Shown here: piece by piece, positions 14,600-17,500 of the stretch
How positions within the stretch are numbered: position 1 is the stretch's first letter
How the letters are laid out: every line of letters begins with the position of its first letter
DNA from: Escherichia coli
Lineage (GTDB): Bacteria; Pseudomonadota; Gammaproteobacteria; Enterobacterales; Enterobacteriaceae
Reading direction: 5' to 3' (one strand)
DNA length: 64,000 nt
NCBI RefSeq assembly: GCF_003991155.1
Contig: NZ_CP031293.1
Made by a program: the position numbers

Positions 14600-17500
14600 T
14601 ACTCGAAGGTCGGATAAGATGCGTTAGCATCGCATCCGACGTTGAAGGATAAGATGCGTTAGCCTCACATCTAACTGAACAACATCGCGATTTTACCGAT
14701 CGCGTAACCTATCACCAGCACCGTTAAGCTGATTTTGATAATGCTGGTAATGCTCTGTGGTTTTTCATCCTCATCATTTTTTTCTTCGTGGTTTTCAGGT
14801 GTTGGCTCATCGACATCTTCATCCTCCGGCTCGAGTTTCACTTTCGTCAACAGCATCCGCGTGATAATGGCCTCTAATGGATGAGCATCTCCACCTTCCA
14901 GCCTTGTATTAAGACGGGCCAGCATCTCTTGTTTCGGGAACGCTTCCAGCACAACCTGTTCCGCTACCCGATACAAATCCAGTAACGGTGAATCTTGTTC
15001 TGTCTCGCTACCGACTCTCGATTTCCACCATGCCCATGCTTTGCGCTTGAAGAATAACGACTCAATAAACGATTGACCTAACGGCGATAATTTTCCGCTA
15101 TGTAAAATTTCCGCCCATAACAGCCGCGTCCGGGCGCTCTCACCAGGAACATATTTCAACGGTTGACCTTGCGCATCTATCATGCTTCGCGCTTCGATAA
15201 CCATCACTAATAACGCGAAATAATCCGGGCAATGACGCTTGCTCCACTGCAACAACAAATTATCAGCTTGTGTAGATGGGTAACTCTCCCGGTATGCGCA
15301 GAGATCGGCAAGCAGGCTTTCCCCCTCGCCACAGTACAACCGTTGCGCACACTGGTAATAACGGGCATCTTCGCTTTCTGGATTTTCTGCTTGCCACTGT
15401 TGGGCAACAGGAATAAGTTCCGCCATACCTGTTTTCACCGAGCTGTACCAGCGCAACAGTTTGCGATGTAACTTGACATCATCAGGAATGAACCACGGAC
15501 CTTCCATTGCCATAAACGCAGTGACATAGTCAGGATGGTAACGGCAGCAGCGTTCCAGCGCGAAGTAATACTCAACAGTCTGGTTCTGCAACGCGACGGG
15601 ATATTCCAGAAGGCTAAGGAAATCGAAACAATCACCAGCCTGAATGGCCTCAAGAAAAGCCTCCCTTTCTTCCTCATCCATTCCTTCGCTGTCATTAAAC
15701 GAATGCCAGTTCAAACGCTCTGCCAGCAAAGAAGCACAATTTAATGAAAGATATCGCGCTTCTATAGCGACTGCACACAGCGGCCAGCGTAATTGATCGA
15801 CATCCTCCATGTTCCAGGTATTTAATTGCTGAATAAATTTCTGCCAGGCGGAGGGCTGAAAACGATCACTTTCAGAATCCAGTAATGCCCTGAATGCACG
15901 TAGTATTTCATGTTCAGCGGCGGCATCTTTTTCTTCATCATCTGCTTCCTCGACAGGATTTACCGCCAGTCGCAGCGCCTCTTCATAGGCCTGGCGTAAT
16001 GCTTTAAACCCCTGCGGATCGGTTTCGGGATGACACAACGGTAAGCGAGCAAGATAAGCCTGGCGGATAATGTCTATTTGCGTCGTGCTTTCAATTTCGA
16101 GGATTTGCCAACATGTTTTCATAGGTCGCTCACATCCTTAAGCGTTACCGGGCATTCAGGCTGGACAGTTAATGGCTGCCAGGGAAGCGTGGCATAGAAA
16201 CGGTCGCTTCCCGCTGCCAGCTCTTCGAACATCCGACTCCCGGCGCTATCGTATTTGTACAGGGTTAGCGCCTCGCGTAGCGAAGCGTTGTCTTCGCACT
16301 GAGAAGATTGCCAGTAGAGACGCCCTAACGAATAGGCGGAAAAATAGTGCATCCAGCTGTGATAGTAATGGTGTGCTCGTATATAGACGCGCGATTGCAG
16401 CCATAAACTCTCGTCTTCCGTCAGCCACTTGTTGAGCACACCAACCCGTGATAAAAAACCCATCCGCACATAATCCCAGGCTTTGATTCCCCCTTCCCCA
16501 CAACACATAGCGGTTTGGGCAACGAATTGGGTATAAATCAACCCTCTCTCCGAGCCGCCAGCAATTAATGCTTTCCACTCTTCAGGGGAAGAGCGATGCC
16601 ATGTCAGATATAAGCCAGCTAAATCATTGGCATGACCATCATCGGTCATCTGATAAATAGTCTGAATTAAATCATCACGATTATTTATTCCCCAGGATGA
16701 TGAGAGATCGAATTCTTTTATCCCGGTATACATTTTTGGCGAGTCATGCGCGGGCTTGCAACCCTGATTAAGTATTTCCATGGGCGTAGAAAGCGCAAAA
16801 AGAAGATATTGTTCTTCCTTATTCATTTGTTAATAATCCCTTAAGTGCATTAACTGACTACTTTTTTATTATTGATGAGTATAAACTTGACGCTTTCAAA
16901 ATAAAAAGAAAATCGAAGCATTCATACATGAATAAAAAATTAATGTATATATTCGCAATATTTATAGTTGCAGCAATAACCTGTATTAGCCAACCCAAGA
17001 AAACGACGTTGCGTGATAAAGCCATGGCGAATTATGCCTTTGATTATTTAAGCTCACCGGGCAGTCTTCCATTCACCACGGCAGCCACGGAGCTTTCCGC
17101 GATTCATGGTCACTCAACGTCGCAATATCGCCTTGGAGAATTTTATCTTCATGGTAGCGACGGTAAACCACTGGATTATACACAGGCGAGATACTGGTAT
17201 GAGCAATCAGCGGAACAGGAAAATCCACGCGCGCAAAGTAAACTGGGGTGGATCTACCTCAAAGGTCTGGGGGTCAAACCCGATACCCGTAAAGCAATTC
17301 TCTGGTATAAGGAAGCAGCTGAACAAGGGTATGCTCATGCTCAATATACTTTAGGTTTGATCTACAGAAACGGCTCAAGTATTAATGTTAACCATTATGA
17401 ATCTCAAAAATGGTTAAAACTGGCCGCCAAACAACATTACAAAAATGCGGAAAGATTACTTGCCGGGCTTCCCGCACATTAACGTCGACTGTCACCCGAA

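Follow-up and report, generated by a model that had tools for sequence, protein, structure and literature searches.

His-Pro-Glu in place of His-Pro-Asp in the short J-domains of Escherichia coli DjlC and DjlB: a conserved signature of probable HscC co-chaperones

The genome of Escherichia coli GCF_003991155.1 (contig NZ_CP031293.1) encodes, within the 64,000-nucleotide window analysed here, to which all positions refer, the specialised Hsp70 HscC and two paralogous J-proteins, DjlC and DjlB, which carry the tripeptide His-Pro-Glu (HPE) where J-domains have the invariant His-Pro-Asp (HPD). DjlC and DjlB are very probably tail-anchored class C J-proteins in which HPE is a selected signature of HscC co-chaperones, Glu33 substituting for Asp35 of DnaJ. 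The family of HscC co-chaperones as a whole has HPE followed by xDPxGF as its ancestral signature, kept by selection, and the two paralogues inherited it. No invariant of Hsp70 co-chaperones is better known than HPD, which makes a functional exception to it worth understanding.

The gene djlC (14671-16122, minus strand) encodes a protein of 483 residues, composed of a J-domain, an all-helical body and a C-terminal tail-anchor helix (residues 458-482), and djlB (17492-18919, minus strand) encodes a paralogue of 475 residues with 50% identity to DjlC. In DjlC, H31-P32-E33 is encoded at 16024-16032 (minus strand) by the codons CAT (16030-16032), CCC (16027-16029) and GAA (16024-16026), and in DjlB at 18821-18829 (minus strand) by CAT, CCA and GAA. 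A sequence-only reading had placed HPE instead of HPD at these positions and had held that Asp is replaced by Glu in both copies; translation bears out the positions to the base, and profile alignment onto the HPD of solved J-domains puts Glu at the position of Asp35 in both proteins. The invariant His-Pro-Asp of J-domains is absent from DjlC, DjlB and the entire close family, all of which have His-Pro-Glu.

The N-terminal 54 residues of DjlC (15961-16122, minus strand) and of DjlB (18758-18919, minus strand), which are 70% identical over 60 residues, form a shortened three-helix J-domain in which HPE lies in the loop joining helices II and III. In both proteins residues 4-47 were aligned by Pfam PF00226 to positions 2-51 of the 63-position profile, with 19.0 bits and E 0.0015 for DjlC and 21.8 bits and E 0.00021 for DjlB. 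A single-sequence phmmer search with residues 1-100 of DjlC gave no match among PDB sequences. A family profile built from the first 60 residues of 20 family members and searched against PDB sequences with HMMER gave 55 matches (best E 4.8e-6), all of them J-domains or J-like except two designed maquette chains; E. coli DnaJ was matched with E 7e-6 to 2e-5 (1BQZ being the alignment shown, and 5NRO_B among the matches). In the HMMER alignments, HPE falls column for column on the HPD of Caenorhabditis elegans dnj-12, human DNAJA1 and E. coli DnaJ, and the profile alignments place a deletion of 3-7 residues, relative to solved J-domains, directly after DPQG in the DjlB/DjlC family.

The predicted structure leads to the same assignment. 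The AlphaFold model of full-length DjlC has a predicted local distance difference test score (pLDDT) of 79.6, and residues 1-60 modelled alone reach 88.9, with helix I at residues 4-8, helix II at 16-29 (16-26 in the 60-residue model), the HPE loop at 30-35 and helix III at 36-54. A Foldseek search of the PDB with the 60-residue model returned J-domains as nearly all of the top 50 matches, and the DnaK-bound J-domain of DnaJ (5NRO_B) was superimposed with an rmsd (root mean square deviation) of 2.0 Å and a TM-score of 0.68. Full-length DjlC gave only weak TPR-like matches in the PDB, the best with E 0.079. No part of the protein is more conserved than this domain, in which 22 of 60 columns are invariant. 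Thus the N-termini, which had been called J-like, proved to be J-domains by the sub-threshold Pfam match, by the fit of the family profile to solved J-domains and by AlphaFold and Foldseek.

The link of this J-domain type to HscC is well supported by gene neighbourhood. In the window, hscC (12890-14560, plus strand) encodes a short Hsp70 of 556 residues, the partner of DjlC and probably of DjlB, identified by Pfam HSP70 (E 3e-117), by its RefSeq name and by alignment to DnaK; hscC (end 14560) and djlC (end 14671) are convergent, and djlB lies 2.9 kilobases (kb) further along. A scan of one genome per species with the pattern [HN]PExDP[EQD]GF matched at least 600 stretches, of which 539 were confirmed and 80 loci were returned, four of these being too short to judge. 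An HscC-type Hsp70, defined by HscC being its best match, adjoins the J gene in 73 of the 76 informative loci, with a median gap of 3 nucleotides. The loci come from Gammaproteobacteria (Escherichia, Gilliamella, Pectobacterium, Pseudomonas, Budvicia, Pragia, Yersinia, Rahnella, Marinobacter and Bowmanella), Betaproteobacteria (Caballeronia), Bacillota (Lachnospiraceae, Clostridiales Family XIII, Peptococcaceae, Clostridium, Bacillus, Eubacterium and Peptostreptococcaceae) and Chlamydiota (one Parachlamydiales metagenome-assembled genome, MAG). The neighbouring HscC-type Hsp70s are 41-63% identical to HscC, compared with about 31-36% to DnaK in the six checked, and have the HscC-specific deletions in common.

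Six distant family members of 837-1263 residues, located by exact sequence, all adjoin an Hsp70 of 563-567 residues, which is 41-59% identical to E. coli HscC versus 32-36% to DnaK, and all six of these Hsp70s lack the same 24 residues of the nucleotide-binding domain as HscC does. Some distant members have a C-terminal DUF805 domain and others TPR arrays. In the reverse direction, all five HscC-type Hsp70s picked regardless of their neighbours are followed just downstream by a J-like member of this family, with HPE in the Bacillus cereus group and in a MAG labelled Solirubrobacterales, KPE in a Verrucomicrobia MAG, RPE in Chitinimonas and RPD in Ralstonia mannitolilytica. What marks HscC partners is thus the short J-domain type, whose tripeptide is usually, not always, HPE. 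In three loci from Bacillota or uncultured-bacterium MAGs (L058, L074 and L088), an HPE-type J-TPR gene has no Hsp70 within at most 8 kb on each side; the Hsp70 partner may be encoded elsewhere or be missing.

Published biochemistry agrees with the gene neighbourhood. DjlC alone stimulates HscC, which DnaJ, CbpA and HscB fail to do, according to Kluck 2002 as cited in a 2021 review by Mayer (PMC8215388), in which DjlB is assumed to act as DjlC does and cadmium (Cd2+) sensitivity is described on loss of hscC or of both djl genes. The suggestion that HPE may reflect specialisation for HscC, made from the window alone, thus gains strong backing from the 73 of 76 loci and from the stimulation by DjlC only, the latter as given in reviews citing Kluck 2002.

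How Glu33 might act can be considered from the DnaJ-DnaK structure, in which His33 bonds to the backbone of linker L391, Pro34 packs on P419 and Asp35 bonds to R167 and Q378 (PMC8215388). It was proposed by Tomiczek et al. 2020 that this Asp competes for R167 with Asp residues located in the linker and in the substrate-binding domain. By alignment, HscC keeps the contact partners of DnaK as R146, Q341, L356 and P388; of these, R146 (13325-13327, plus strand) is the conserved counterpart of R167, and Q341 (13910-13912, plus strand) that of Q378, the second contact of Asp35. Across 71 HscC-type proteins, the equivalents of R167 (70 of 70), Q378 (70 of 71), P419 (71 of 71) and D393 (71 of 71) are kept. 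Glu33 may thus take the place of Asp35 of DnaJ and would engage the conserved Arg146 and Gln341 of HscC, by which ATP hydrolysis would be triggered; the longer side chain of Glu might suit the shortening, by 3-7 residues relative to DnaJ, of the II-III loop and the start of helix III.

A stronger claim would be that Glu33 itself sets the specificity, permitting HscC and blocking DnaK, so that a single exchange of Glu for Asp would change the partner. HPE-type J-domains do almost always adjoin HscC-type Hsp70s, DnaJ and HscB, both with HPD, do not stimulate HscC, and the J-domain of DjlC cannot replace that of DnaJ (PMC1906734). However, the residues that contact Asp35 are identical in HscC and DnaK (R146/R167 and Q341/Q378), other differences at the interface are many, and Ralstonia-type HscC partners carry Asp (RPD), which makes this claim unlikely. 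Near the docking surface, HscC-type proteins lack the DnaK loop 208-211 and have D477 replaced by Ser or Thr and linker L392 by Thr, to which the shorter loop and helix III of the J-domain and, in enteric bacteria, the loss of K26/R27 are added. Since the docking surface of HscC differs elsewhere and the loop and helix III of the J-domain are shorter, partner specificity probably rests on the J-domain as a whole.

Two candidates were rejected, one for a compensating change in HscC and one for the basis of its specificity. HscC N448 (DnaK D481) appeared to co-vary with the change from HPD to HPE around the shared Arg, being Asn in 69 of the 71 HscC-type proteins and Asp in DnaK and HscA, but Asn is the usual residue there in most Hsp70s, which work with HPD partners (Tomiczek et al. 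2020). The loss of basic residues in helix II (DnaJ K26/R27 to L24/A25) is limited to the Escherichia/Salmonella clade; among 78 sampled loci, position 24 is Arg in 64 and position 26 is Arg or Lys in 61.

Glu33 is conserved far beyond the enteric bacteria. The 120 close homologues come from Escherichia, Salmonella, Citrobacter, Enterobacter and Pseudocitrobacter; in 113 of them the N-terminus is included, and every one of these 113 has HPE as residues 31-33, ahead of an invariant DPQGF. A hidden Markov model (HMM) of the full-length family, searched against 1.8 billion representative proteins, found 6,702 clusters at E <= 1e-3, and tripeptides were tallied for the best 150 of them, 146 of which were new proteins: about 106 have HPE, 12 have another residue for His (NPE 8, SPE 2, LPE 1 and PPE 1), and the remainder are N-terminally incomplete fragments. 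Asp was not found at the position of Glu33 among these top 150 matches. The codons for Glu33 are GAA in 55 cases and GAG in 36, with no GAY; this sample comes from the genome scan, whose motif demanded Glu, and so shows synonymous turnover, the absence of Asp resting on the 113 homologues and the top-150 search.

The wide fixation of Glu together with the use of both GAA and GAG argues for purifying selection, in agreement with the earlier suggestion that a substitution conserved between the two paralogues implies selection; Glu is in fact fixed across Escherichia, Salmonella, Citrobacter and Enterobacter and far beyond. If the change from Asp to Glu were a neutral, conservative one, fixed once by drift and of no functional meaning, the two residues should be interchangeable and a mixture would be expected, whereas Glu is invariant in about 230 sequences from several phyla that were sampled regardless of the residue. 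A single transversion is enough to turn GAR into GAY, both GAR codons are in use, and Asp appears only where His has also become Arg. The chemical likeness of Asp and Glu, the presence of Asp in one clade of HscC partners, and a 2026 review in which HPE, found in DjlB and DjlC, is the only 'tolerated' replacement (PMC13254874) speak for drift, but we regard it as quite improbable.

The His position is, unexpectedly, the freer of the two, which bears on how universal the HPD rule is. In a 54-sequence cross-phylum alignment, only L8, A22, Y23, P32, E33, P36 and G38 are invariant, and Glu33 is more conserved than His31. The His-position variants NPE, SPE, LPE, PPE, KPE and RPE occur in lineages with HscC partners, and RPD in a Ralstonia clade. 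A J-like gene with such a variant adjoins an HscC-type Hsp70 in seven loci (L004 2303-5788, L006 6001-9792, L008 2887-5400, L089, L092 8858-10234, L093 7767-9566 and L096 7710-9713), and in the four whose Hsp70 partners were checked (L004, L006, L008 and L089) the key catalytic and contact residues of the Hsp70 are intact. Among 24 relatives of the Ralstonia protein, RPD was found in 16, RPE in four, NPE in two and HPE in two; Asp in place of Glu occurs only in this clade, where His is replaced by Arg. Glu is therefore typical, not obligatory, in the J-domains of HscC partners.

In canonical J-domains, the substitution H33Q abolishes function. The His-variant domains may be active exceptions or dead domains; if they are active, HscC-type Hsp70s would be switched on through a contact geometry in which the His is dispensable. 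It is possible, though we hold it to be doubtful, that across the HscC co-chaperone family only the Pro and the following DPxGF are truly fixed and that the J-domain trigger of HscC obeys rules other than those of canonical HPD.

One could argue from the sub-threshold Pfam score, missing helix IV, non-canonical tripeptide and the loss of His in some relatives that the domain with HPE has degenerated into an inactive J-like form of 'type IV' that drives no Hsp70. This is highly improbable given the stimulation of the HscC ATPase by DjlC, published and cited as such in reviews, and given that the domain exceeds the rest of the protein in conservation and keeps its tight linkage to an intact HscC gene in different phyla. 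A misalignment, with the true HPD equivalent elsewhere, is practically excluded, as the alignment that could have moved it places residues 31-33 on the HPD of solved J-domains, and the literal HPD of DjlC at residues 196-198 (15529-15537, minus strand) was rejected as a candidate because it lies in the helical body, outside the J-domain, in a non-conserved column where DjlB reads HPE, and is a chance occurrence.

Several points weigh against reading HPE as a selected signature of HscC co-chaperones in which Glu33 stands in for Asp35. No compensating change was found in HscC at the residues that directly contact Asp35, so that sequence does not account for a need of Glu over Asp. The tripeptide of HscC partners is not uniformly HPE, as RPD (in the Ralstonia clade), NPE, SPE, KPE and RPE also occur, and the pattern of the genome scan fixed Glu and was hence blind to Asp variants. 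Stimulation of HscC by DjlB is unreported in the literature found and is assumed from similarity. As a J-domain, too, the region is atypical: DjlC and DjlB both score under the PF00226 gathering score of 27.8 bits, which one of ten distant relatives scanned exceeds (P0142, 29.9 bits), and a clear helix IV is not evident: the Pfam alignment ends at position 51 of the 63-position profile, pLDDT is below 50 for residues 58-68 of full-length DjlC as modelled, and modelling of the 60 residues alone gives just a four-residue helix at 56-59.

The central helical domain PF27158 (DjlB_C_2nd) is precomputed for distant relatives as well as for the cluster representatives that match the window protein at 95-100% identity, and NCBIfam has no DjlB or DjlC model and no HscC-specific model. 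Both DjlC and DjlB have hydrophobic C-termini, the helix at 458-482 of the DjlC model being the tail anchor. Both proteins are described as tail-anchored (PMC8215388), and membrane insertion of DjlC was reported by Peschke 2018, as cited in the same review.

The architecture of HscC partners varies beyond Escherichia/Salmonella. In other Gammaproteobacteria, the partner has about 890-910 residues (L002 8001-10655 and L009 6001-8688), with similar partners in about 55 Pseudomonas, Gilliamella and Pectobacterium loci (L013-L090), and in the four of these proteins that were scanned a match to the DUF805 membrane domain at the C-terminus replaces the single tail-anchor helix. The partner in Bacillota has 800-1280 residues and long TPR arrays.

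The neighbourhood of hscC has features of its own. Bases 12890-20764 (7,875 bases) match several complete E. coli genomes with 100% identity, in which RefSeq names the genes hscC, djlC, ybeU, ybeT, djlB, ybeR and ybeQ, so the gene names in the window are correct. Besides the genes described above, the region includes ybeU (16119-16826, minus strand) and ybeR (18916-19623, minus strand), both encoding DUF1266 proteins, ybeR being placed upstream of djlB as ybeU is of djlC; ybeT (16928-17482, plus strand); ybeQ (plus strand, end at 20764); and, beyond it, ybeL (20835-21317, minus strand). The stretch 14671-20764 is a tandem duplication of a three-gene module of a J-protein (djlC/djlB), a DUF1266 protein (ybeU/ybeR) and a Sel1/TPR protein encoded on the opposite strand (ybeT/ybeQ). 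In both modules the stop of the DUF1266 gene overlaps the start of the J gene by 4 nucleotides (16119-16122 and 18916-18919).

At least 80% of the 7.9 kb stretch 12890-20764 is found in one place in only 3,148 of the 5,426 complete genomes of E. coli. Judged from these assemblies, the species is thus polymorphic for the hscC-djlC-djlB region, possibly through the loss or rearrangement of one duplicated module. A DUF1266 gene also accompanies the J gene in 59 of the 73 loci of other genera that combine an HPE-type J gene with HscC, located upstream of the J gene in gammaproteobacterial loci. In the Bacillus cereus group (L094) it is downstream of the J gene. The HscC system may thus have the DUF1266 protein as a third component, so far unstudied.

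HPE in DjlB and DjlC and its link to HscC are already published. Malinverni et al. 2023 found HPE in 2,921 J-domains, about 1% of the total and roughly 1,700 of them prokaryotic, and named DjlB and DjlC among them (PMC10410713). No mention of a D35E mutant was found in the literature search. What is added here is the invariance of Glu across the family, the cross-phylum synteny with HscC-type Hsp70s and the His-position variants. Far from being peculiar to two paralogues, HPE is ancestral to a large family of HscC partners that spans phyla. Two findings may be new: that the His position is free to vary, with Asp only in the Arg clade, and that a DUF1266 gene is a conserved neighbour.

Comparison with known systems places these proteins as follows. 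The genes of the window are the same as those of the E. coli HscC co-chaperones DjlC (YbeV) and DjlB (YbeS) of Kluck et al. 2002, as cited in PMC8215388 and PMC13254874, with no difference. The canonical J-domain of DnaJ shares helices I-III, the tripeptide at the tip of the II-III hairpin and the fold (the 2.0 Å rmsd to 5NRO chain B), and the equivalents of DnaJ R22, K48, K51 and Y54 are kept in DjlC/DjlB as R20, K40, R43 and Y46. Unlike DnaJ, DjlC and DjlB have HPE, a loop and helix III start shorter by 3-7 residues, no detected helix IV and a score below the Pfam gathering score, the enteric DjlB/DjlC are without K26/R27, and DjlC, according to the literature, works with HscC and not with DnaK. 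The HscB-HscA system is also a dedicated pair encoded side by side, and HscA likewise lacks the DnaK loop 208-211, whereas HscB has HPD and the nucleotide-binding domain of HscA has no counterpart of the 24-residue deletion seen in HscC. Other J-domains with HPE (Malinverni et al. 2023) show the same replacement of Asp by Glu, but the eukaryotic HPE proteins are fused to sodium/calcium-exchange domains and are unrelated to HscC. The 'type IV' J-like proteins, for example DNAJB13 (PMC13254874), also deviate from HPD and are presumed to be unable to stimulate Hsp70, whereas DjlC is reported, as cited in reviews, to be active on HscC.

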